From: an uncultured Bdellovibrionales bacterium
Lineage (GTDB): Bacteria > Patescibacteriota > Minisyncoccia > Moranbacterales > UBA2206
Direction of reading: 5' to 3'
Length of the DNA: 37,776 nt
Assembly: GCA_964567695.1 (NCBI GenBank)
Contig: CAZMNQ010000003.1
Coordinates: 1-37,776 of the forward strand
The notes under the pieces are model-generated. The model was given only the letters and a program-made list of their open reading frames with translations, had not been told where the DNA came from and searched no databases. Below are positions 4,196 to 37,776 of this stretch, piece after piece. Within the stretch, counting starts at the first letter, position 1, and every line of letters begins with the position of its first letter. The translations under genes and the position numbers were made by a program.

Positions 4196-5476
4196 ATGTC
4201 TAAGATAAAAAAGATTTTTGCCAGGGAGATTTTGGATTCACGGGGTAATCCGACAGTGGAAGTGGAAGTTGAATTGGAGTCGGGAATTAAAGCTGTGGCA
4301 GCGGTGCCGTCAGGCGCTTCGACTGGAATTTTTGAGGCTTTGGAATTGCGAGATGGCGATAAGAAAAGATTTAGTGGGTTGGGAGTTTTGCAAGCCGTGG
4401 AGAATGTGAATGAAAAAATCCAAAAAGTTGTGGTTGGTATGGAAGTGGAAGGTCAAATTGAAATTGATCAAAAAATGCTGGAATTGGATGGAACGGAAAA
4501 TAAAACTAATTTGGGAGCCAACGCAATTTTAGGTGTCTCACTGGCTGTTTGCCGCGCCGCGTCTGTTGAGGCTGGCATACCGTTGTATAAATATATTTCT
4601 AAGGCCTACAAACTACCTGCCTGCCGGACAGGCAGGAAAACCACGGGCTTTAAAATGCCCATTCCCATGTTTAATATCATCAATGGCGGCAAGCACAGTG
4701 ATTCAGGACTTTCAATTCAGGAATATAAGTTGGTACCCAATGGCATTAAATCGTTCAAGGAGCAATTCCGTGCTGGCAGTGAAATTTTTCATAAATTAAA
4801 AGATATCTTGGCTTCTGAGGGACAAAGCGTGGCTGTGGGTGATGAAGGTGGTTTTGCGCCTCGCCTGGAAAGCAACTCCAAACCCTTGGAACTGATTAAT
4901 CGTGCTATAGAAGAAGCCGGTTATAAAAAAGGAAAGGAAGTCAGTACGGCGATAGATGCGGCGGCTTCATCTTTTTTTGACGAAAAAGAAGGACAATATA
5001 TTTTCAAACCGGAAAGCAACGGCATCACTCGTGAAATGTTGGTGAATATTTATAGCGAATGGATAAATAAATATAATGTAATGTCAGTTGAGGACGGTTT
5101 GAATGAGCAAGATTGGGAAGGCTGGCGCGCGATGGAAGAAAAAATTGGAAAGACGGTGATGACAATTGGCGATGATCTCTTGGTGACCAATGTAAAAAGA
5201 TTGGAAATAGCGATCAAAGAAAAAGCGTGCAATTCTGTTTTGATCAAGGTTAATCAGATCGGCACCCTAACAGAAACGATGGCGTGCATAAAATTGGCCA
5301 AGAAAAATAAGATGCGAATCGTCATTTCGCATCGTTCAGGCGAAACCACTGATGACTTCATAGCCGACCTAGCCGTGGGCGTGCAAGCCGACTACATAAA
5401 ATCCGGCTCCCTTTCCCGAGGCGAGCGAATTTGTAAATATAATCGCTTGTTGAGGATTGAGGAAGAAATAAAATAG
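4196..5476 (+). CDS. eno: Enolase (phosphopyruvate hydratase)
   Basis: MSKIKKIFAREILDSRGNPTVEVEV..., SGASTG, NIINGGKH, IKVNQIGTLTET and SHRSGETTD are textbook enolase motifs. Carries a 21-nt palindromic insert (4616-4636). Confidence 0.95.
   Translation: MSKIKKIFAREILDSRGNPTVEVEVELESGIKAVAAVPSGASTGIFEALELRDGDKKRFSGLGVLQAVENVNEKIQKVVVGMEVEGQIEIDQKMLELDGTENKTNLGANAILGVSLAVCRAASVEAGIPLYKYISKAYKLPACRTGRKTTGFKMPIPMFNIINGGKHSDSGLSIQEYKLVPNGIKSFKEQFRAGSEIFHKLKDILASEGQSVAVGDEGGFAPRLESNSKPLELINRAIEEAGYKKGKEVSTAIDAAASSFFDEKEGQYIFKPESNGITREMLVNIYSEWINKYNVMSVEDGLNEQDWEGWRAMEEKIGKTVMTIGDDLLVTNVKRLEIAIKEKACNSVLIKVNQIGTLTETMACIKLAKKNKMRIVISHRSGETTDDFIADLAVGVQADYIKSGSLSRGERICKYNRLLRIEEEIK
4616..4636. repeat. 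Family P1 palindromic core in frame inside eno
   Basis: CCTGCCTG-CCGGA-CAGGCAGG. It encodes PACRTGR, within the LPACRTGRK segment, in the loop preceding PIPMFNIINGGKH. Confidence 0.75.
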
Positions 5477-5561: not shown

Positions 5562-7505
5562 ATGCAAGAAGAACAAAACAATTTGGGGGGAGTGGAAGAA
5601 AAATTGGATGGCATAATGAATGCCTTGAAAGTTCTGAATGAAAAAATTGAAAAACAGGGGGAGCGGATTGAGAGATTGGAAATAATTTCCAGCCAAAATG
5701 GAGTATCTCAGGCTTCTGTAACTAGCGCTGTTTCGGCGCCTCCGACACCGCCAGTGCCCGAAAATAAACTCACACAAGAATGGGCGACAAATGTTTCTGC
5801 TAAAATAGATGCGCCTGAGGAAAAAATCAATTTTGAGGAAAACATCGGTGGGACATGGTTTGCCAGAATCGGAATTACCTCCTTGGTGTTGGGTGTTTCT
5901 TTCTTGCTGAAATATGCTTTTGATAATAATTGGATTGGAGAAACTGGCCGAGTGATGATCGGGATTATTATTGGCTTGATTCTGTTAGGCTTGGGAGAAA
6001 AATATATCCGTAAATATTTTGTTTATGGACAGCTCATTACTGGCGGCGGAATCGCGGTTTTGTATCTTTCAATTTTTGCGGCTTTTAATTTCTATCATTT
6101 GATTGGTCAATTGCCGGCTTTTTTTATGATGATATTGATTACGGCCATCGGAATTGTTTTAAGCTTGCGTTATAATACATTATCATTGATAATTGTTTCC
6201 ATTATTGGCGGTTTTGTGACGCCCTTTCTTGTTTCAAATGGACAGAATAATCAAATTGGATTATTGTCATACGTTTTGCTTTTGGATGTGGCTATCCTAG
6301 TCATTTCTGTTTTCAGAAAATGGCGCGAATTGAATTTCATCGGTTTTATTGGAACTGTAATTCTTTTTGGTTCTTGGGCGGCAGAATTTTATACCACGAA
6401 AGATTTGGGAATGACAATGTTTTTCCTAACAACCTTTTTCATTGTTTATTCGATTTCTTCGTTGATTTATAATTTAGTAAAAAAGGAGAAGTCCTCCCAA
6501 ACAGAACAAATGCTGACATTGTTTTCGGCGACGGCCTATTTTGGCGCGAGCTATGCGCTTTTGAATGACGATTATCATCTATTTATGGGCTTTTTCTCTT
6601 TAATTTTGGCAATTTATTATTTCCTTTGGGCATATTTGGTCAAAGCAGTGACGCCGGAGGATGAAAATCTATATAATTTTCTCGCCTTTCTGACCGTTGG
6701 TTTTATAACTTTGGCCATTCCTTTGCAATTTGAGAAAAATATAATCTCAATCGGTTGGTTGATTGAATCAATAATCTTAATTTATTTGGGAGTTAAAACC
6801 CGAGGAAGTGAAATTAAGATTCTCGGAGTAGCAGTTTTGGTGTTGGCATTGCTTAGATTAATGACAATTGATTCCGTATATGCGCAAGACAGCGGTATGA
6901 TACTCAATCAAGTATTTTTGACTTTTATTTTTGCGGTGTTAATTTCTTATGTGGCGGCTTATCTCTTTAAGTTAATTTCAATCAGTGATGGGGACAAAAA
7001 TTATGCCCAGTCTAGGCAAATGACTGTAATCTTGCTGGTCGTGGCTAATTTCTTAACGATATATGCCATTAGCCGTGAAATAAGTTTTTATTATCAAAAA
7101 CAAACCACGGAAATCAGAGTGAAACAAGATAAAGCCAGGGCGGATGCCAGAGCTTTAAATAGTGCTGGAAGCTATAATAAAAATTATTATAATAGCATCT
7201 ATGATGATGCTGGCACATATGAAGAAATTCAAAGAATTGGAAATAAAAACAGCGTGTCGCTATCTATTTTCTGGCTGATGTACAGTATAATTTTATTGGC
7301 AGTTGGAATCATTGGAAAATATAAGGGGGTGCGCGTTGGCGGCTTGATCCTCCTATCAGCAGCTATTTTGAAACTATTTTTCTATGACTTATGGAGCTTG
7401 GGCACGCTTTATCGAATTATCTCATCAATCAGCTTGGGTGTCGTGCTTTTGTCAATTTCTTTCGCCTATCAAAAATATAAGGATAAAATTAAGGAAATAA
7501 TTTAA
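5562..7505 (+). CDS. Polytopic membrane protein, DUF2339-like
   Basis: N-terminal coiled-coil (EEKLDGIMNALKVLNEKIEKQGERIERLE), then many hydrophobic helices with the repeated pattern typical of DUF2339 (WFARIGITSLVLGVSFLLKYAFDNNWIG..GR...G). Recognised from memory, not searched. Confidence 0.65.
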   Translation: MQEEQNNLGGVEEKLDGIMNALKVLNEKIEKQGERIERLEIISSQNGVSQASVTSAVSAPPTPPVPENKLTQEWATNVSAKIDAPEEKINFEENIGGTWFARIGITSLVLGVSFLLKYAFDNNWIGETGRVMIGIIIGLILLGLGEKYIRKYFVYGQLITGGGIAVLYLSIFAAFNFYHLIGQLPAFFMMILITAIGIVLSLRYNTLSLIIVSIIGGFVTPFLVSNGQNNQIGLLSYVLLLDVAILVISVFRKWRELNFIGFIGTVILFGSWAAEFYTTKDLGMTMFFLTTFFIVYSISSLIYNLVKKEKSSQTEQMLTLFSATAYFGASYALLNDDYHLFMGFFSLILAIYYFLWAYLVKAVTPEDENLYNFLAFLTVGFITLAIPLQFEKNIISIGWLIESIILIYLGVKTRGSEIKILGVAVLVLALLRLMTIDSVYAQDSGMILNQVFLTFIFAVLISYVAAYLFKLISISDGDKNYAQSRQMTVILLVVANFLTIYAISREISFYYQKQTTEIRVKQDKARADARALNSAGSYNKNYYNSIYDDAGTYEEIQRIGNKNSVSLSIFWLMYSIILLAVGIIGKYKGVRVGGLILLSAAILKLFFYDLWSLGTLYRIISSISLGVVLLSISFAYQKYKDKIKEII

Positions 7506-26282: not shown

Positions 26283-26335
26283 TATTTAGCATTTTTATCC
26301 TCAGTTTGCATTTTTAATGTAGCGGGGTAGCTAAC

Positions 26336-26361
26336 AAAAAAGACCATAAACGGTCTTTTTT
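26336..26361 (+). terminator. Rho-independent terminator after the KH-protein gene
   Basis: AAAAAAGACC-ATAAAC-GGTCTTTTTT. Confidence 0.75.
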
Positions 26362-26494
26362 GTTTCCCTTTTGTGTGGTATTATTAGATTGCATTCGCCC
26401 CAGTAGTATATTTTGGGTGGGTGGATTAATACATAAATAAAAATCTTGAAGTATTAAAAAACAGCTAGTTAATGCTTTAAGATTATACTGTGGG

Positions 26495-27208
26495 GTGAAA
26501 TTTGATATAATTACAATTTTTCCTGAGATATTTGACTCCTATTTTTCCGAGTCGATTATTAAGCGCGCGCAAGGCGCTGGTTTTGTAGATATAAATATTA
26601 TTAATTTGCGTGACTACACGACAGATAGTCATAAGACTGTTGACGACACGCCCTATGGCGGAGGAGCGGGTATGGTTATGAAAGTTGAACCGATATATCG
26701 AGCTGTTGGCTCGATAATTTCCAATTTCCTCCGCCGCGGCGGACCAATTTCCAATGAATTTTCAAATTCAAATTCCAAAATTTCTAAACCAGATAATGTA
26801 TGTATTATTTTATTTTCAGCTAAGGGGAAGCGCTATACACAGCAAGACGCAGTTAGATTATCTAAATATGAAAATATTATAATGATTTGCGGTCGCTATG
26901 AAGGCGTGGATGAAAGAGTGATTGAACACATCGCGGATGAAGAAATTTCCATCGGAGATTTTGTTTTAACGGGTGGTGAAATTCCGGCGATGGTGGTTGT
27001 GGATAGCATCACGCGTCTCATTCCGGGTGTTCTTGGCAATAGTGAATCAATTGTGGCAGAGTCCCACAGTGAAGAACAATATTTGGAATATCCGCAATAC
27101 ACAAAACCGGAGTATTTTTCAGGTTGGAAAGTCCCTGAAGTGCTTTTGAGCGGCAATCATAAAAAAATTTCCGTTTGGCGCGAAGATAGTTCTAAATCAG
27201 TGAAATAA
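26495..27208 (+). CDS. trmD: tRNA (guanine37-N1)-methyltransferase
   Basis: GTG start. [53 protein letters not shown]. Carries an in-frame repeat element at 26715-26784. Confidence 0.9.
26715..26784 (+). repeat. Family P2 element (core TCCGCCGCGGCGGA at 26730-26743) in frame inside trmD
   Basis: AATTTCCAATTTCC-TCCGCCGCGGCGGA-CCAATTTCCAATGAATTTTCAAATTCAAATTCCAAAATTTC. The 9-mer CCAATTTCC directly flanks the core on both sides. Encodes [23 protein letters not shown]. Confidence 0.8.
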
Positions 27209-28392: not shown

Positions 28393-28469
28393 CTTGAAAA
28401 TTTAGTAATTGAAGATTGATTGTAAATTCCTGCCTGCCGGCAGGCAGGGAAAATTGTAAATTGAAAATT
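28393..28469 (+). repeat. Family P1 full-length element (core 28429-28448), intergenic between ftsW and murG
   Basis: CTTGAAAATTTAGTAATTGAAGATTGATTGTAAATT-CCTGCCTGCCGGCAGGCAGG-GAAAATTGTAAATTGAAAATT. Perfect 20-nt palindrome. The arms are homologous to the copy inside miaB. Confidence 0.8.
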
Positions 28470-29583: not shown

Positions 29584-29645
29584 ATTTAATTTCAAAAACC
29601 AAATTTCAAATTTCAAATCAACTTTAAAAAACAAATTTCAAACTA
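29584..29645 (+). repeat. AT-rich AATTTCA heptamer tract without a GC core (murG-murC intergenic)
   Basis: ATTTAATTTCAAAAACCAAATTTCAAATTTCAAATCAAC...CAAATTTCAAAC carries the same heptamer as the P2 flanks. Confidence 0.5.
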
Positions 29646-29652
29646 ACTATAA

Positions 29653-31086
29653 TTGAAAAATATGGATTTATCAAAAATTAAAAATGTCTATGTGATTGGC
29701 ATTAAGGGCTCGGGTATTGTGGGTATTGTGGAAATTCTCACAAAAATGGGCATATTTGTGAGCGGATCGGATGTACCGGAGAAGTTTTTTACTGATGAAA
29801 TTTTGCAAAAATTAGATATAAAATATTTTGAGGAATTCTCAGAAAAAAATATTCCGGAAAATGTTGATTTAATTTTATATTCAACCGCCTATAACGCGGA
29901 GAATAATATTGAATTTAATGCGGCTAAAGAAAGAGATGTGTTGATGATGAGTTATCCGGAAATTTTAGGGGAACTTTTTAATCAAAAATATGGCATTGCG
30001 GTTTGTGGAACACATGGCAAAACTACAACTTCTGCCATGATGGCCTTTGTTTTGCAGGCAGTGGGCGTTTCTCCGACCGCGGTCATTGGTAGCCGCGTCA
30101 AACAGTGGGGTGGCAATGCTCTAGTTGGCACAGGAGAATATTTTGTTATTGAAGCGGATGAATATCAAAATAAATTAAGACTATATGAGCCAAAAGGAGT
30201 AATTCTTACAAGTGTGGATTGGGACCATCCAGACACATATCCAACTCTTAATGAATATAAAAAAGCTTTTACAGATTTTGTGGCTAAAATTCCCAAAACT
30301 GGTTTTCTAGTCGTTTGGGGAGATAGTATTGATACAAATGAAATTGCTAAGTATTGTACTGCTAAAGTAATTAAATATGGATTTGGAGAGGATAATGATG
30401 TTGTAATTTCAAATTTCAAATTTCATCCGCCGCGGCGGACAAATCAAAATCAAATGTCAAATGATCAAAATGATGAATTAAAATATCAGAGTTTTGATGT
30501 TATGTATAAAAAAGAGAATCTGGGTAGTTTTCAAATTAAACTTATTGGAAAACATAATGTTTTGAATGCTGGAGCGGTAATTGCAGTGTGTCACAAGTTG
30601 AATTTGGATATGGAAAAGGTGCGTGAAGCATTGAAGGATTTTTCCGGAACTTCAAGGCGCTTTGAAATGATTGGGCAGAGGAATGGCGCTATTTTAATTG
30701 ATGATTATGGCCATCATCCGGAAGAAATCAAAGCTACGCTGAAAGCGACTAGAGAAATTTATCCGGACAAAAATATTATTGCAGTCTTTCATCCGCATTC
30801 CTATTCACGAACCGAAGCCTTGTTACAAGATTTTGCGCAAAGTTTTGATGACGCGGACCGTGTGATTGTGCTGGACATCTATGGTAGCGCCCGGGAAAAC
30901 ACAGGCAATGTTTCTTCTGAGGATCTAGTAAAATTGATTAACAAATATAATCGCGGCAAAGCTGAATATATTGCAACCATTGATGGAGCCGTAGAATCCT
31001 TGCAAGATAAAATCAGCGACACGGATATTGTTCTGGCGATTGGCGCCGGCAATGTTTTTGAGGTGGTGAAAAAATTAAAATTTTAA
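29653..31086 (+). CDS. murC: UDP-N-acetylmuramate--L-alanine ligase
   Basis: GIKGSGI..., VSGSD, VCGTHGKTTTSAM, EADEYQ, GKHNVLNA, IDDYGHHPEEI. The ORF track starts at TTG 29653; ATG at 29662 is an equally plausible start. In-frame repeat element at 30404-30470. Confidence 0.9.
   Translation: MKNMDLSKIKNVYVIGIKGSGIVGIVEILTKMGIFVSGSDVPEKFFTDEILQKLDIKYFEEFSEKNIPENVDLILYSTAYNAENNIEFNAAKERDVLMMSYPEILGELFNQKYGIAVCGTHGKTTTSAMMAFVLQAVGVSPTAVIGSRVKQWGGNALVGTGEYFVIEADEYQNKLRLYEPKGVILTSVDWDHPDTYPTLNEYKKAFTDFVAKIPKTGFLVVWGDSIDTNEIAKYCTAKVIKYGFGEDNDVVISNFKFHPPRRTNQNQMSNDQNDELKYQSFDVMYKKENLGSFQIKLIGKHNVLNAGAVIAVCHKLNLDMEKVREALKDFSGTSRRFEMIGQRNGAILIDDYGHHPEEIKATLKATREIYPDKNIIAVFHPHSYSRTEALLQDFAQSFDDADRVIVLDIYGSARENTGNVSSEDLVKLINKYNRGKAEYIATIDGAVESLQDKISDTDIVLAIGAGNVFEVVKKLKF
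30404..30470 (+). repeat. Family P2 element (core 30426-30439) in frame inside murC
   Basis: TAATTTCAAATTTCAAATTTCA-TCCGCCGCGGCGGA-CAAATCAAAATCAAATGTCAAATGATCAAAA. Encodes SNFKFHPPRRTNQNQMSNDQ, a different reading frame from the trmD and miaA copies. Confidence 0.8.
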
Positions 31087-33481: not shown

Positions 33482-34957
33482 ATGACAAAATACATTCCCG
33501 TCATTGGCATGGAAATCCATGTTGAACTGAAGACTAAATCAAAAATGTTTTGTAGTTGCAAAAATGGTTTGGGCATGGAGAAGGAACCTAATGTAAACAT
33601 TTGTCCGGTTTGTACGGCGCAACCGGGGACTTTGCCGGTGGCTAACAAACAGGCAATTGAGTTTGTGCAAAGAGCGGGCTTGGCGTTGAATTGTCAAATT
33701 GCTGAAAATTCCAAGTTTGATCGTAAAAACTATTTTTATCCGGATATCCCGAAAGGCTACCAGATTTCACAATATGATCAACCACTTTGCGAACACGGGA
33801 ATATCAAAATTGACGGTAAGAATGTGGGCATCACGCGCATTCACATGGAGGAAGACACGGGCAAATTAGTGCATCCGAAAGGCGCTGACCATTCCTTGAT
33901 CGATTTTAATCGTGCGGGTGTGCCTTTGATGGAATTGGTGACTGAGCCGGACATTGAGAGTGGCAAAGAGGCGCGGTTGTTTTGTCAGAAATTGCAGCAG
34001 ATTTTCCGTTATTTGGAAATTTCCGAAGCGGACATGGAAAAAGGGCATATGCGCTGTGAAGTCAACATTTCTCTGCACAAAGAAGGTGAGGAAAAGTTGA
34101 GTGGCACCAAAGCGGAAATTAAAAATCTGAATTCTTTTCGTGTGGTGGAAAAAGCGGTGGATTATGAGATTGTGCGCCAGACAGAAATTTTGGAGAAAGG
34201 TGAAAAAGTGGTGCAAGAAACCATGGGCTGGGATGAAGCGCATGGCATCACGGTGACGCAAAGAAAAAAAGAATCCGCGCATGACTATCGCTATTTTCCG
34301 GAACCGGACATTCCGCCGATGAAATTTACGCAGGATCATGTGGAAAATTTACGCCGACATTTGCCGGAGCTTCCAGATGCTAAATCTGCACGGTTTATGG
34401 AAGAATATGGTTTGTCTCCAGAAAATGTCAGCGTGATAACTGGCGAGCGGGATTTGGCTGAATATTTTGAGCAAGTTATTTCCGAACTGAAAGAAAAAAA
34501 ACAAAGCGGCGAGGTGGTTGCGGCCGAAGAAAAATTGGTCAAACTAGCGGCGAATTATATGGCGAGTGAATTGCAAAAACATTTTGTTAAAAATTTCCAG
34601 ACCATCAAGGATGTGAAAATCAGCGCGGAAAATTATGCTGAACTGATTGGCATTTTGGCTGATGGAAAAATAAATTCCAGCGCGGGTCAATTGGTCTTGA
34701 AAGAAATGTATGCCACGGGCGGCGATCCATCACAAATTATCGAAAGTAAAAATTTGGCGCAGATGAGTGATTCATCAGAATTGGAAAAAATTGTGGATGA
34801 AGTTATGTCCAAAAATCAAAAATCAGTAGCGGACTTTCACGCCGGCAAGGATAATGCTTTGCAATTTTTGATAGGACAAGTTATGGCTGCTTCAAAAGGC
34901 AAGGCGAATCCTAAAGTAGTAACCGATTTATTAAAAAGTAAATTAGAGAGTAGTTAG
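33482..34957 (+). CDS. gatB: Asp-tRNA(Asn)/Glu-tRNA(Gln) amidotransferase subunit B
   Basis: IGMEIHVELKTKSKMFCSC, CPVC.AQPGTLPV, MEEDTGK, DFNRAGVPLMELVTEPD, plus a C-terminal GatB/YqeY domain. Confidence 0.9.
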   Translation: MTKYIPVIGMEIHVELKTKSKMFCSCKNGLGMEKEPNVNICPVCTAQPGTLPVANKQAIEFVQRAGLALNCQIAENSKFDRKNYFYPDIPKGYQISQYDQPLCEHGNIKIDGKNVGITRIHMEEDTGKLVHPKGADHSLIDFNRAGVPLMELVTEPDIESGKEARLFCQKLQQIFRYLEISEADMEKGHMRCEVNISLHKEGEEKLSGTKAEIKNLNSFRVVEKAVDYEIVRQTEILEKGEKVVQETMGWDEAHGITVTQRKKESAHDYRYFPEPDIPPMKFTQDHVENLRRHLPELPDAKSARFMEEYGLSPENVSVITGERDLAEYFEQVISELKEKKQSGEVVAAEEKLVKLAANYMASELQKHFVKNFQTIKDVKISAENYAELIGILADGKINSSAGQLVLKEMYATGGDPSQIIESKNLAQMSDSSELEKIVDEVMSKNQKSVADFHAGKDNALQFLIGQVMAASKGKANPKVVTDLLKSKLESS

Positions 34958-35949
34958 TTTTTTATAAAAACTGAAACTTCTTTCTCCATATCCTTGTATT
35001 TTTTCAACCACTTTATGCGATGGTCTTTTTGAAACCAGGTCATTTGCCGTTTAGCATAGTCTTTTTCGGCTAAATAGACTCGTTCGTATAATTCTTCAAG
35101 AGTTATTTTTTCTTGCAGATATTCCGGTATCCAAAAATAGCCCAGTCCGAAGCTTTGAATTTTTTGAAAACTTAAGCCGGATTTTTTCAGTTTTTGTACC
35201 TCAGAAATCATGCCGGCCTGCCAGCGCGTATCGAGGCGTTTTTTGATTTTAGCGTGCAGTTTTTCTTTGGGAACGGAAATGCCGATTTGGAGAAACTCGT
35301 AACTCGTAACTTGTAATCCGTAACTCATGTCGGGAACTTTACCTAAAGTTTTGCAAATTTCAATGGCGCGAATGAGGCGCACTTTGTTTTTGGCATCGAT
35401 GTTTTCAGCGCGTCTAGGATCTAGTTTTTTTAATTCATGAATTAATTCAGTAATTTCTTTTTGCTCAAGTTTCTTGCGTAATTTCCAATCCGGCTTGACT
35501 TCTGGATAGGTTATATTATCCACAGCAGCTTTTATCCAAAAGCCGGTACCGCCACACAAGATGGGCAACTTTCCGCGTCTCAGAATGTCTTTAATAATTT
35601 TGTCTGCTTTCTTTTTAAATTGTGCTGCGCTGAAATTGGTTTTAGGACTGACAATGTCCAGCATATGATGCACGACGCCTTCGGAAATAAAAGGTTTTAT
35701 TTTTTTAAATTTAGTATTTTGAATTTGATTTGAAATTTGTCCGCCGCGGCGGATGAAATTTGAAATTTTATCTTGTGTCACTTTGCCCGTACCAACATCC
35801 ATGCCACGATAAATCTGGCGTGAATCAACCGAAACAACTTCGCCATCGAATTTCTGGGCAAGTTTAATCGCCACCGCTGATTTTCCAGCCGATGTAGGAC
35901 CTAATATCACGATAATTTTATTCAGTGGTAATTTATTGTATTTTGTCAT
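34954..35949 (-). CDS. miaA: tRNA dimethylallyltransferase
   Basis: ILGPTSAGKSAVAIKLA P-loop, SVDSRQIYRGMDVGTGK, HHMLDI, ILCGGTGFW, RLIRAIEI. Contains an in-frame repeat element at 35707-35769 and a heptamer microsatellite at 35296-35326. Confidence 0.9.
   Translation of the reverse strand: MTKYNKLPLNKIIVILGPTSAGKSAVAIKLAQKFDGEVVSVDSRQIYRGMDVGTGKVTQDKISNFIRRGGQISNQIQNTKFKKIKPFISEGVVHHMLDIVSPKTNFSAAQFKKKADKIIKDILRRGKLPILCGGTGFWIKAAVDNITYPEVKPDWKLRKKLEQKEITELIHELKKLDPRRAENIDAKNKVRLIRAIEICKTLGKVPDMSYGLQVTSYEFLQIGISVPKEKLHAKIKKRLDTRWQAGMISEVQKLKKSGLSFQKIQSFGLGYFWIPEYLQEKITLEELYERVYLAEKDYAKRQMTWFQKDHRIKWLKKYKDMEKEVSVFIKN
35296..35326. repeat. Heptamer microsatellite inside miaA
   Basis: CTCGTAA CTCGTAA CTTGTAA TCCGTAA CTC on the plus strand. 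Encodes YGLQVTSYEF on the coding (minus) strand. Confidence 0.6.
35707..35769 (-). repeat. Family P2 element (core 35740-35753) in frame inside miaA
   Basis: Coding strand reads AAAATTTCAAATTTCA-TCCGCCGCGGCGGA-CAAATTTCAAATCAAATTCAAAATACT. The 9-mer CAAATTTCA flanks the core on both sides. Encodes KISNFIRRGGQISNQIQNT. Confidence 0.8.
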
Positions 35950-36042
35950 ATATTTTTTTATACGCGTATTCGTTAGATGCTCAAATTTTTAATTTTTAAT
36001 TTTCAATTTTTAAACAAATCTCAATGATTAAATTTTTAAATA

Positions 36043-37494
36043 TTAAACGATTTCTCCTTCCAAATTCCAAATGCTAACTTTAGTAATTTTAACTTTTATA
36101 ATCTTGCCAATCAGAGATCCCTCGACAAGTTCGGGATGACAATCGTTACTGATTGTCATTTTGACATTTTTTCCGGTGCGGGTTTTGCCGAAATAAATAT
36201 GGTGCTTTCCTAGAGCTAAGCTCTTGGAATCCAAGAGCTTAGCTCTAGGAGAACTTTCCTTTTCGATCAGGATTTCGACAGTCGTGTTGAGGAATTTTTT
36301 GCTATTTTTCAGCGCGGTCTTTTTCAGGATTTCATTTAAAAATTGTTCGCGACGGGCTTTTTCGGTTTTGGAAACTGAGTCTTTCATATTCCAAGCCGGT
36401 GTGCCGGGGCGGGGGGAAAATTGGCCAAAGAAAACCATGTCGTAACCGACTTTTTCCATGATTTCCGCAGAGTCTAAAAATTGTTTTTTGGTTTCACTTG
36501 GGAAGCCGACAATGATATCGGAAGTGATGACGGCTGGCACGCCCGATTTATTTTTTTTGAAAGCGGCTTGAATTTTTTTAACTAAAATCAAATATTCTTG
36601 CGCGGTGTATTTGCGATTCATTTTTCTGAGGACTTCATCATTGCCAGCTTGGATGGGCAGATGAAAAGCTTCGCAAACTTTTTTGCATTTCGTTACTGTT
36701 TCAATCATTTCTGGCGACACATCTTTCGGGTGATTGCTGACAAAGCGAATCCAAAATTTTCCCGGGATGGCGTTGACTTTTTTTACGAGCTTAGAAAAAT
36801 TTATTTTGCCATCCGAGTATGAATTAACATTTTGTCCAAGCAAAGTTATTTCTTTGTAGCCTTTTTTCACTAGATTTTTTACTTCATAAATTATTTCTTC
36901 CGCCGGTCTGGAAACTTCCCGTCCACGAGCATAGGGCACGACGCAGTAGGCGCAGAAATTGTTGCAGCCGGTCATAATCGGCACAAAAGCTTGATATGCA
37001 TTTGTAAGTTTTGGTTTAATGGATAGATAAGAGATATTTTCTTTGCTTAGTTCGATATTTTTTTGTGCCGAAATTTTCAATTTACAATTTACAACCTTGC
37101 CTGCCGGCAGGCAGGTTTTCAATGAATTTTCAATGATAAAATTTTCAAACAGCTCAAAATTGTTAATAGGGGAAAATAAATCAACTTTATTTTTTAGTCT
37201 TCTTTGCACATCTTTGCGGTTGGCGAGACAACCAGTTAAAACAATCTTGATTTTTGGATTAGCCTTTTTGAGATTATGAACTTGTCCATAGACCCGATCT
37301 TCGGCCATTTGGCGCACCCCACAGGTGTTGAAAATGACCAAACCTGCCTTCGCTAAGGCTTCGGCAGGCAAGTCAGCATTTTCGTTCCTAGTAAGTGGTT
37401 CTAGTCCTTGTGATTCCAGAAAACTGGCAATCCGCTCACTGTCTGAATGGTTCATCTGGCAACCAAAAGTTTTGATAGAGTATGTTTTATTCAT
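36043..37494 (-). CDS. miaB: tRNA-i6A37 methylthiotransferase (radical SAM MTTase)
   Basis: TFGCQMNHSDSE and FNTCGVR (N-terminal cluster), GCNNFCAYCVVPYARGRE (radical SAM CxxxCxxC), C-terminal TRAM domain. Contains at least three palindromic in-frame inserts. Confidence 0.9.
   Translation of the reverse strand: MNKTYSIKTFGCQMNHSDSERIASFLESQGLEPLTRNENADLPAEALAKAGLVIFNTCGVRQMAEDRVYGQVHNLKKANPKIKIVLTGCLANRKDVQRRLKNKVDLFSPINNFELFENFIIENSLKTCLPAGKVVNCKLKISAQKNIELSKENISYLSIKPKLTNAYQAFVPIMTGCNNFCAYCVVPYARGREVSRPAEEIIYEVKNLVKKGYKEITLLGQNVNSYSDGKINFSKLVKKVNAIPGKFWIRFVSNHPKDVSPEMIETVTKCKKVCEAFHLPIQAGNDEVLRKMNRKYTAQEYLILVKKIQAAFKKNKSGVPAVITSDIIVGFPSETKKQFLDSAEIMEKVGYDMVFFGQFSPRPGTPAWNMKDSVSKTEKARREQFLNEILKKTALKNSKKFLNTTVEILIEKESSPRAKLLDSKSLALGKHHIYFGKTRTGKNVKMTISNDCHPELVEGSLIGKIIKVKITKVSIWNLEGEIV
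36116..36159 (-). repeat. Hairpin-containing in-frame insert in the miaB TRAM domain
   Basis: ATGACAATC-GTTACT-GATTGTCAT hairpin at 36136-36159, next to CCCTCGACAAGTTCGGG. Encodes TISNDCHPELVEGS between conserved V.M and LIGKIIKVKI. Confidence 0.55.
36208..36250. repeat. Near-perfect 41-43-nt palindrome in frame inside miaB
   Basis: CCTAGAGCTAAGCTCTTGGA-A-TCCAAGAGCTTAGCTCTAGG: 20 of 20 pairs around a single central base, and each arm is itself palindromic (AGAGCTAAGCTCT). Encodes SPRAKLLDSKSLALG. Confidence 0.75.
37072..37149 (-). repeat. Family P1 full-length element (core 37095-37115), 78 nt, in frame inside miaB
   Basis: Minus strand reads TTTGAAAATTTTATCATTGAAAATTCATTGAAAA-CCTGCCTGCCGGCAAGG-TTGTAAATTGTAAATTGAAAATT. 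It shares ATTGTAAATTGAAAATT and the left arm with the intergenic copy at 28393-28469. Encodes FENFIIENSLKTCLPAGKVVNCKLKI. Confidence 0.8.
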
Positions 37495-37776
37495 AGATAT
37501 TCACTTGCTCCGCCCCAATTCACTCACAAAATGTAGATTTGGTTATAACTTGAGCCGGAGGCGACTATGCAAGCAAAATTAACAGTTAATATGCAATTAA
37601 ACCTAGAATTGGGGCTGGGGTTTGACAGCCAAGTTTTTATGTAATAATGATGTGTCATAGTTTTTTGACAAATGAATAATTGACTATAGGGAAGTATATC
37701 AGTAATGGGGGAAAAATCCAACATCAAGTAGGGGGGGCAGAACATGTCAAAGAGGTATGTGTCAGAAATCGAGAGT

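Follow-up and report, generated by a model that had tools for sequence, protein, structure and literature searches.

A G+C-rich palindrome at heptanucleotide arrays inside conserved genes of a Candidatus Moranbacteria genome

How does a perfect G+C-rich palindrome come to lie between two identical 9-nt repeats inside a gene for a tRNA-modifying enzyme, while that gene remains open from end to end? The question is posed by miaA in the 37,776-nt stretch of contig CAZMNQ010000003.1 (assembly GCA_964567695.1) that was analyzed here and is called the window throughout, and the palindrome, 14 nt long, is referred to as P2. The best explanation appears to be that Candidatus Moranbacteria (Candidate Phyla Radiation, CPR/Patescibacteria) have a short interspersed repeat with P2 as its G+C-rich hairpin core, which took the place of one AATTT in older A+T-rich arrays and would have been copied from array to array by homology; the probability of this explanation as a whole is put at about 0.5.

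P2 in miaA, trmD and murC

The miaA copy, the two further copies in the window and the arrays beside them are laid out as follows.

34954..35949, minus strand: miaA (tRNA dimethylallyltransferase; PF01715/PF01745), the host gene, a 331-amino-acid (aa) open reading frame (ORF)
35683..35766, minus strand: lineage-specific MiaA loop insertion of ~27 aa (about aa 62-89, ISNFIRRGGQISNQIQNTKFKKIKPFIS), A+T-rich, heptamer-derived, low-complexity coding sequence that holds P2
35740-35753, palindromic: P2, the perfect 14-nt palindrome TCCGCCGCGGCGGA, translated as (I)RRGG in MiaA
35731-35739 and again 35754-35762, plus strand: the 9-mer TGAAATTTG, bracketing P2
35754..35762, minus strand: gene-sense upstream 9-mer CAAATTTCA, the last heptamer unit plus CA of a perfect array (AAATTTC)x2
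35754-35767, minus strand: exact AATTTCAAATTTCA, the array preceding P2 in miaA
35731..35739, minus strand: gene-sense downstream 9-mer CAAATTTCA, the next heptamer unit, followed by degenerate units (AAATC, AAATTC, AAAATAC...)
26495..27208, plus strand: trmD ORF (PF01746)
26730-26743 (context 26721..26752), plus strand: P2 copy in trmD, with CCAATTTCC on both sides, in a (CCAATTT)n array, translated LRRGG
29653..31086, plus strand: murC ORF (Mur ligase domains)
30426-30439 (context 30405..30448), plus strand: P2 copy in murC, directly after (AATTTCA)x3, right flank CAAATCAAA, translated HPPRRT
29588..29618, plus strand: unoccupied AATTTCA array of 4.4 units, murG-murC intergenic, upstream of murC

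The 331-aa product matches tRNA dimethylallyltransferases in the PDB, including 3d3q and 2qgn (E about 1e-51 to 1e-53), its best database relatives are named MiaA proteins of Candidatus Moranbacteria/Parcubacteria, and its ORF runs uninterrupted across P2 (the stretch spanning the translated insert reads ...ISNFIRRGGQISN...). On the coding (minus) strand the order is CAAATTTCA-P2-CAAATTTCA between the conserved GMDVGTGK and HHMLDI blocks, just as the original prediction had described it from the letters of the window, and its impression that the linker is much longer than in characterized MiaA proteins is borne out: the blocks are separated by 37 aa here and by 10 aa in solved structures and in many Moranbacteria MiaA. 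Residues 62-89 of the query are unpaired in the PDB structure alignments, and in an AlphaFold model built with 50 homologues residues 46-82 have a predicted local distance difference test score (pLDDT) <50 and are without secondary structure; the segment that carries P2 is thus modelled as a floppy, disordered loop. The P2-bearing segments of TrmD (aa 73-99) and MurC (aa about 256-271) likewise have no counterpart in solved homologues. P2 itself is 86% G+C and is set in flanks that are 67-83% A+T.

Membership in a repeated family, also proposed earlier, is seen in the three exact 14-mers of the window (at 26730, 30426 and 35740, where shuffles lead one to expect 0.03), all of which adjoin an A+T-rich heptanucleotide array and sit inside the ORF of a conserved gene; the miaA copy does lie within such a heptamer microsatellite, as had been suggested. 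Exact (AATTTCM)2 tracts number four in the window, and three of these adjoin P2 at the 3' end of the tract, the murG-murC array being the only exact double-heptamer tract that is without it. Read on the sense strand, the contexts are ...AATTTCAAATTTCA-P2-CAAATTTCAAATC... in miaA, ...(AATTTCA)x3-P2-CAAATCAAAATC... in murC and ...AATTTCCAATTTCC-P2-CCAATTTCCAATG... in trmD, with CC as the junction bases at P2 in trmD and CA in the other two.

The arrays, (AATTTCA)n or (AATTTCC)n, are read as ISNFKFQ or ISNFQFP and are free of stops in all three frames in the sense orientation only, the complement containing TGA; P2 has no stop codon in any frame. These properties account for both the constant sense orientation of the element and its use of three frames (IRRGG/LRRGG, HPPRR and, in relatives, SAAAD). 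Across Moranbacteria the same loops of MiaA, TrmD and MurC hold many unrelated repeat-derived peptides, and on this comparison the permissive loops are best regarded as recurrent landing sites, insertion hot-spots clade-wide.

Sites without P2 and the origin of the 9-nt flanks

Alleles without P2 were found at all three loci in related Moranbacteria genes, the DNA of which was taken from public assemblies (about 190 kb of Moranbacteria DNA was covered; the loci used for comparison carry L numbers).

miaA: L001 (74% aa identity), P2-less, GAAATTTCAAATTTCA-AATTT-CAAATTTCAAATCAAAT; window, AAAATTTCAAATTTCA-P2-CAAATTTCAAATCAAAT
trmD: L247, P2-less, TCGATAATTTCCAATTTCC-AATTT-CCAATTTCCAA; window, TCGATAATTTCCAATTTCC-P2-CCAATTTCCAA
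murC: L251, P2-less, TAATTTCAAATTTCAAATTTCA-AATTT-CAAATAAAATCCAAATGTCAAATGA; window, TAATTTCAAATTTCAAATTTCA-P2-CAAATCAAAATCAAATGTCAAATGA

In each pair the flanks align colinearly and gap-free, and the sole length difference is that between AATTT (5 nt) and the 14-mer, so that the net change is +9 nt, three codons, in frame at 3/3 loci. The MurC loop is 54 aa long and uninterrupted in four further relatives (57 aa in the window), and several TrmD relatives share IISNFQFPIS, the peptide of an uninterrupted array. Because relatives of all three loci carry uninterrupted arrays, gain of P2 in the lineage of the window is the parsimonious reading of the alignments. The array itself is wholly absent in more distant and even in closer relatives; in GCA_017973795.1 the neighboring proteins are 91-97% identical to those of the window, yet the TrmD loop is 20 aa long and without the array. 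It had been argued beforehand that invariant flanks and a lack of empty sites would favor an ancient fixed sequence over mobility. The flanks are in fact copy-specific (miaA, CAAATTTCA; trmD, CCAATTTCC; the tsaD-like gene of L107, CAATTTTCA) and there is an empty site for every copy in the window, and these two observations together provide the mechanistic handle on the spread of the family that the miaA copy had seemed to offer.

An order of events is evident from these comparisons. Housekeeping proteins (MiaA, TrmD, MurC and others), in permissive surface loops, and some spacers first gained stop-free, A+T-rich heptanucleotide arrays, and later, in the lineage of the window, the 14-mer came to stand in the exact place of AATTT or, equivalently, a 16-nt P2+CA/CC in that of a 7-nt AATTTCA/CC. 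With a change of +9 nt the reading frame is kept and P2 is simply translated.

The 9-mers find an explanation in the same replacement. If the middle AATTT of ...CA AATTT CA AATTT CA AATTT CA... is replaced, CAAATTTCA would be left on each side, the 9-mer being the 7-nt period plus a 2-nt spacer. The flank identity is genuine, but the 9-mers are no independent evidence, given that any interrupted heptamer array with a 2-nt phase overlap yields the same flank identity; they are neighboring units of a pre-existing (AATTTCM)n array and not a target-site duplication. The flank repeat is 9 nt long in heptamer arrays (miaA and trmD of the window; L107) and 8 nt long in L036; in the octamer arrays of L198 and L232 it is 10 nt, from which it follows that its length tracks the period plus 2. 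Where the downstream units are degenerate the repeat is imperfect, with 5/9 bases matching in murC and 6-7/9 in L005 and L103.

It had been suggested that the 14-bp palindrome integrated with a genuine 9-bp duplication of its target, and the perfect 9-mers that differ between copies at miaA, trmD and L107 are what such an event would leave. This reading is nonetheless barely credible: an insertion of 14 + 9 = 23 nt, no multiple of 3, would shift the frame when every host ORF is intact, the three P2-less orthologues differ by +9 nt and have AATTT at the site, and removal of P2 with one 9-mer recreates no observed allele. The imperfect flanks of murC, L005 and L103 and the 10-nt and 8-nt repeats just described also weigh against it. 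Deletion between the 9-mers was considered as a source of the empty alleles and rejected, since only two units would be left after such a loss of 23 nt, and L001 has four units in frame.

The other origin offered for the miaA copy, birth inside a heptamer microsatellite, survives in part: the microsatellite did come first, but local generation of the palindrome does not hold, because at least seven different genes and genomes have the identical 14-mer, which is thus likely to have been copied in. Independent origin at each locus, by slippage or by quasi-palindrome snap-back synthesis, would be in keeping with the constant position of P2 within heptamer arrays and with the various GC-rich palindromes that similar arrays of other species hold (LRQPADP, CRQAG, LPTGRQV, PASPAGGS, PLRQLADGG). 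It is very improbable even so, as an identical 86% G+C 14-mer cannot come repeatedly from AATTTCA repeats, snap-back synthesis would copy the local A+T-rich sequence, and it is the 14-mer together with its junctions that recurs.

Once present, P2 appears to decay and to travel with its surroundings. In L003, a contig of the same species, GGCGGA has become GGCGAA and the palindrome is broken, and an internal C>T variant of the trmD copy was found in two aquifer samples. Between the window (26690-26900) and L248, nucleotide identity falls from ~90-95% to ~61% over roughly 100-200 nt downstream of the trmD loop and recovers after, which suggests that the divergent trmD segment, with its array and P2, was imported by recombination.

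How P2 may have spread

Copies of P2 with the same type of flank occur, among the matches listed, in a UvrD-like ORF (L103), in L005, in a glycosyltransferase-like ORF (L095) and in a TsaD-like ORF (L107). Such copies in other genomes, of the CPR type, are in the sense orientation throughout and use all three frames, and at least four related copies lie inside ORFs, as do 3/3 in the window. Identity between murC of the window and L103 extends to up to 41 nt, P2+CCAATTTCCAAT is common to trmD of the window and L005, and the flanks of L005 are a chimera of CA and CC, the right flank being of the CC type.

P2 also has variants. The trmD site holds a 17-nt TCCGCC-AGCC-GGCGGA+T in L246 and a 17-nt TCCGCC-AGCT-GGCGGA+T in L249, the latter with a nested 86-nt G+C-rich block; 17, like 14, equals 2 modulo 3, and so these variants too are in frame when they replace AATTT. 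Among related loci the stem TCCGCC/GGCGGA is kept and the loop varies (GC, AGCC, AGCT, ATA, AACT, CACT), and this combination of a constant stem and a changing loop, with turnover at a single site, points to a family of related units. At the 5' end of trmD in L249 (2900-3010), the N-terminal 30 codons are off the called frame (MLKFNIITIFPQIF... in place of VDIAVHNL...); the cause is a mistake in the assembly or else a genuine frameshift that lies upstream of the nested hairpin block.

There is reason to think that P2 moves by homology. Spread would proceed by templated, in-register copying between dispersed arrays, through ectopic gene conversion or template switching, in which the heptamers on either side would pair and the unit with the hairpin would be looped out across from a single ordinary unit; since 16 - 7 = 9, one step would suffice for an in-frame product. 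Whole alleles probably also pass between lineages by homologous recombination. The restriction of window P2 to arrays, the long identical flanks shared between different genes and the chimeric flanks of L005 all support copying of this kind, and the absence of a transposase from the window and the spike of divergence beside the trmD loop fit it as well. Homology-templated copying is given about even odds, and the mechanism is reached by inference.

Several observations weigh against such copying. The trmD bases that touch P2 are of the local CC type and not the CA of the other two copies, so that a conversion tract from a CA donor would have to end exactly at the edges of the palindrome, unless the donor was itself of the CC type, as the right flank of L005 is. 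Among the matches listed, P2 in the A+T-rich, non-repetitive DNA of several phyla is often accompanied by 2-4-nt flanking repeats (CA, TCA, TTA, TTAA), which look like a short, enzyme-made target duplication. The sister palindrome P1, described below, inserts cleanly and without array homology (+20 nt in a spacer, +21 nt in miaB), and hence at least some hairpins of this sort must enter DNA by another route. Finally, the source of the first P2-bearing unit lies outside the explanation.

Most of these points would be accommodated if P2 were a non-autonomous mobile hairpin moved in trans by an enzyme, whether a Y1/HUH transposase, specific for hairpins or single-stranded DNA, of the type of IS200/IS605 and of REP-associated tyrosine transposases (RAYT; REP, repetitive extragenic palindrome) or an endonuclease of the kind proposed for mitochondrial GC clusters. 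The preferred sites of such an enzyme would be TTTCN^ in A+T-rich repeats, where it would leave a duplication of 2-3 nt (CA, CC, TCA), and within genes only those events that also lost one heptamer unit (16 - 7 = 9) would survive selection for frame. Short repeats of variable sequence (CA, CC, TCA, TAA, TTAA) flank ~14/24 copies in A+T-rich contexts other than inverted repeats, in several phyla and among the matches listed, where chance would give ~3; the bases at the junctions are of the local type (CC in trmD; CA in miaA and murC); and a constant stem with a variable loop is the pattern of protein-recognized hairpins such as REPs. AG or ACT repeats likewise flank the GC clusters of yeast mitochondria (PMC4478555). 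Taken as a whole the proposal is less likely than homology-templated copying, of which it is the main and a serious rival. A 16-nt insertion would shift the frame of the essential trmD and murC, and the simultaneous loss of a 7-nt unit would be needed at each of three sites. Genes for a transposase, HNH, Y1 or other nuclease are absent among the 30 ORFs of the 37.8-kb window, as are genes for a transposase, HNH or Y1 from about 150 kb of related loci, as far as genes were called there; viral contigs contain no match to P2, and P2 is without the GTAG or CGTC tag that marks REPs.

P1 shows a different mode of entry. Its copies in the window are these.

28429..28448, palindromic: P1, the perfect 20-nt palindrome CCTGCCTGCCGGCAGGCAGG, in the ftsW-murG spacer amid A+T-rich short repeats
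37095..37115, minus strand: P1 in miaB, 21 nt (20 + 1), in frame (TCLPAGK), exactly +21 nt relative to the L243 orthologue
1607-1627: P1 in valS, 21 nt
4616-4636: P1 in eno, 21 nt

In the close relative L248 a clean 20-nt gap stands in place of the spacer copy. The copies in the coding sequence of valS, eno and miaB each measure 21 nt, with the extra base at varying internal positions, and the intergenic copy measures 20 nt; it seems that only frame-compatible length variants of P1 persist in genes. A 17-nt flank, considered as a possible sign of co-conversion, is common to two of the window copies and is not shared by the empty site of L243, although L243 is distant and the flank is of low complexity. 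In miaB (36043-37494) P1 is one of four in-frame, G+C-rich palindromic inserts (37343-37368, 37095-37115, 36208-36250 and 36117-36137), which amount to +30, +21, +48 and +24 nt and are not present in its 87%-identity relative or in the orthologue that L002, the closest relative, carries. The insert at 36208-36250 is a perfect 43-nt palindrome (SSPRAKLLDSKSLALGK) that occupies the same site in the more distant L245, and its peptide (KSLALGNSESS...) is also found in the MiaA hot-spot loop of other species.

It might be asked whether P2 is retained because it acts in cis, for instance as a terminator, an attenuator, a hairpin that stabilizes RNA, a site for protein binding, an uptake signal or a signal for recoding. 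In many unrelated phyla the 14-mer does stand at the tip of longer inverted repeats and of AAAA-hairpin-TTTT structures that look like terminators, and the RNA of the miaA context folds somewhat better than shuffles (z = -2.9). The other two of the three contexts fold no better than shuffles, and a selected signal is quite improbable on further grounds: the element lies within the ORFs of three unrelated genes, close relatives are without it, and the palindrome is broken in same-species variants. An intrinsic terminator or known RNA was rejected, Rfam giving no match and a terminator scan no call at P2, which is internal to ORFs and has no T-tract, unlike the canonical terminator that the scan called in this genome at 26333-26364. 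Translational bypass (of the T4 gene 60 or mitochondrial byps type) or excision from RNA was rejected as well, because the ORF is continuous and a jump between the 9-mers, which are 23 nt apart and out of frame with each other, would shift the frame. Judged on sequence, P2 is best read as a passenger that is translated, is neutral or does slight harm, and decays through point mutations; it is young and probably selfish.

Known palindromic elements and consequences for the genome

The 14-mer also occurs far from Moranbacteria. A contig scan of the whole collection gave, among the matches listed, mostly unrelated terminator-like or REP-like hairpins that share the 14-mer, in many phyla, and a metagenome scan with a one-sided flank gave, again among the matches listed, mostly one conserved 60%-GC gene family. 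In Flavobacterium (L012, L015, L021, L033, L045, L051, L055, L067, L097, L110, L116) the 14-mer is the apex of ctttttta-P2-taaaaaag, and longer inverted repeats around it have conserved outer arms; in Terracidiphilus/Acidobacteriaceae (L027, L034, L061, L098) it is the apex of ccatccttttcg-P2-cgaaaaggatgg. Both look like separate REP-like families that have the same tip. A Ferruginibacter metagenome-assembled genome (L083, 4953-5040) contains a tandem array with a period of 44 nt, composed of the 14-mer and an identical 30-nt unit (taccccgacatcctaaaacatgaatccgat), which is not like a clustered regularly interspaced short palindromic repeat (CRISPR) array in that its 'spacers' are identical.

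Closest in character to P2 are the mobile GC clusters of yeast mitochondria. In these, G+C-rich palindromes are set in A+T-rich DNA and have AG/ACT flanking repeats; they turn over rapidly, their units merge, and they are exchanged via flanking homology with no dedicated transposase and by a mechanism that is unresolved (PMC4478555). Like these clusters (e.g. GC42), P2 is a short G+C-rich palindrome dispersed in A+T-rich DNA and variably present in close relatives, and such presence and absence was found at the three P2 loci and for P1. The yeast var1 gene carries optional in-frame GC clusters. To the 2-3-nt AG/ACT repeats of yeast may correspond CA/CC/TCA at P2; CA, CC or TCA flank most array-type copies, where in a periodic array they are indistinguishable from in-register replacement of a unit. 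Merging and nesting of units are also paralleled, by the P2 of L103 with its P1-like neighbor and by the nested 86-nt block of L249. Two composites were noted outside the window: in L141 (5262-5300) two P2 copies stand 11 nt apart (P2-TCAAATTTTCA-P2), and in L103 (4244-4290), within the UvrD-like ORF, P2 is followed 11 nt on by the P1-like unit; both resemble the mergers and tandem arrays described for the mitochondrial clusters. P2 differs from these in its place on a bacterial chromosome, in its length (14 nt in place of about 30-50 nt) and in that it replaces one unit of a heptanucleotide array, mostly inside conserved protein-coding genes.

The Rickettsia palindromic elements are the second close analogue. 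They are about 100-150 bp long and lie in frame in permissive regions of housekeeping proteins, where they are translated and have no obvious function. P2 is likewise an in-frame, translated insert in a conserved protein of a reduced-genome bacterium, in a segment unmatched in PDB homologues, but with 14 nt and three net codons it is far smaller and has no sequence relationship to the Rickettsia elements, which are not G+C-rich islands in microsatellites. HIP1 of cyanobacteria is an iterated 8-mer palindrome that accumulates by substitution. Mitochondrial genes of Nematomorpha contain perfect coding inverted repeats of up to 284 bp, both arms of which are coding (PMC6649704). With both of these P2 shares an inverted repeat tolerated within coding sequence; unlike HIP1 it arises as an indel in repeat arrays, and unlike the nematomorph palindromes it is short.

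The Rickettsia elements are mentioned in a review of MITEs (miniature transposable elements with inverted repeats; PMC10969869), and P2 is not itself a classical MITE, as it has no fixed target duplication and its empty sites differ by +9 nt, not by 23 or 16 nt. REPs are extragenic, 20-40 nt long, marked by a 5' GTAG or CGTC tetranucleotide and accompanied by a RAYT gene (PMC3733652). P2 resembles them as a small, many-copy G+C-rich stem-loop with a conserved stem and a variable loop; it is not a REP, because its flanks, TTTC[AC] and C[AC]AAT, are without the GTAG/CGTC tag and it is not extragenic, lying inside ORFs, and no RAYT gene was seen in the window or the related loci. Full-text literature searches returned no account of such elements in CPR/Patescibacteria.

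Repeats of the P2 and P1 type have practical consequences, in that they break assemblies, cut short gene calls and depress the apparent protein identity between close relatives. Logan contigs terminate at P2 and P1, and in one sample k-mers of P2 plus flank are ~30-fold above the single-copy genome. In GCA_017973795.1 a run of N falls precisely at the GTGK-HH linker of miaA (L002, about 5780-5890), owing to which the gene is called as a 240-aa fragment. The miaA-miaB spacer (35825-36217, AATTTTT repeats) has a k-mer depth of 290-1200x in four aquifer metagenomes, against ~5-10x for the flanking genes; very many genomes or loci of the community share this A+T-rich repeat. GC skew in the window is ~+0.2 where genes are on the plus strand (1-35000) and ~0 over the minus-strand miaA-miaB block (35000-37776), and thus follows gene strand, in agreement with the asymmetry of composition between strands that has been reported in some genomes of the CPR.

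The essential conserved genes of this ultra-small groundwater Moranbacteria genome are, on these findings, peppered with recent translated palindromic inserts. The rule that the 14-mer stands in for AATTT, at +9 nt in 3/3 cases, turns the vague idea of a mobile palindrome into a testable model, which predicts that only hairpin units congruent in length with the array unit modulo 3 spread in coding arrays and that their spread needs homology and not a transposase. Mitochondrial GC clusters pose the same question, now decades old, and bacteria, for which there are thousands of metagenomic genomes, could serve to approach it through comparative and population genomics. We tentatively propose that Moranbacteria (CPR) carry a bacterial counterpart of those clusters, in which several families of 14-43-nt hairpins (P2 in its several loop forms, P1 and the 43-nt miaB palindrome) may actively colonize A+T-rich arrays and permissive loops of essential genes without a transposase, by homology-templated, in-register copying and by exchange of alleles through natural transformation. 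If this is true, such hairpins would be a major and so far undescribed source of lineage-specific protein insertions in ultra-small genomes.

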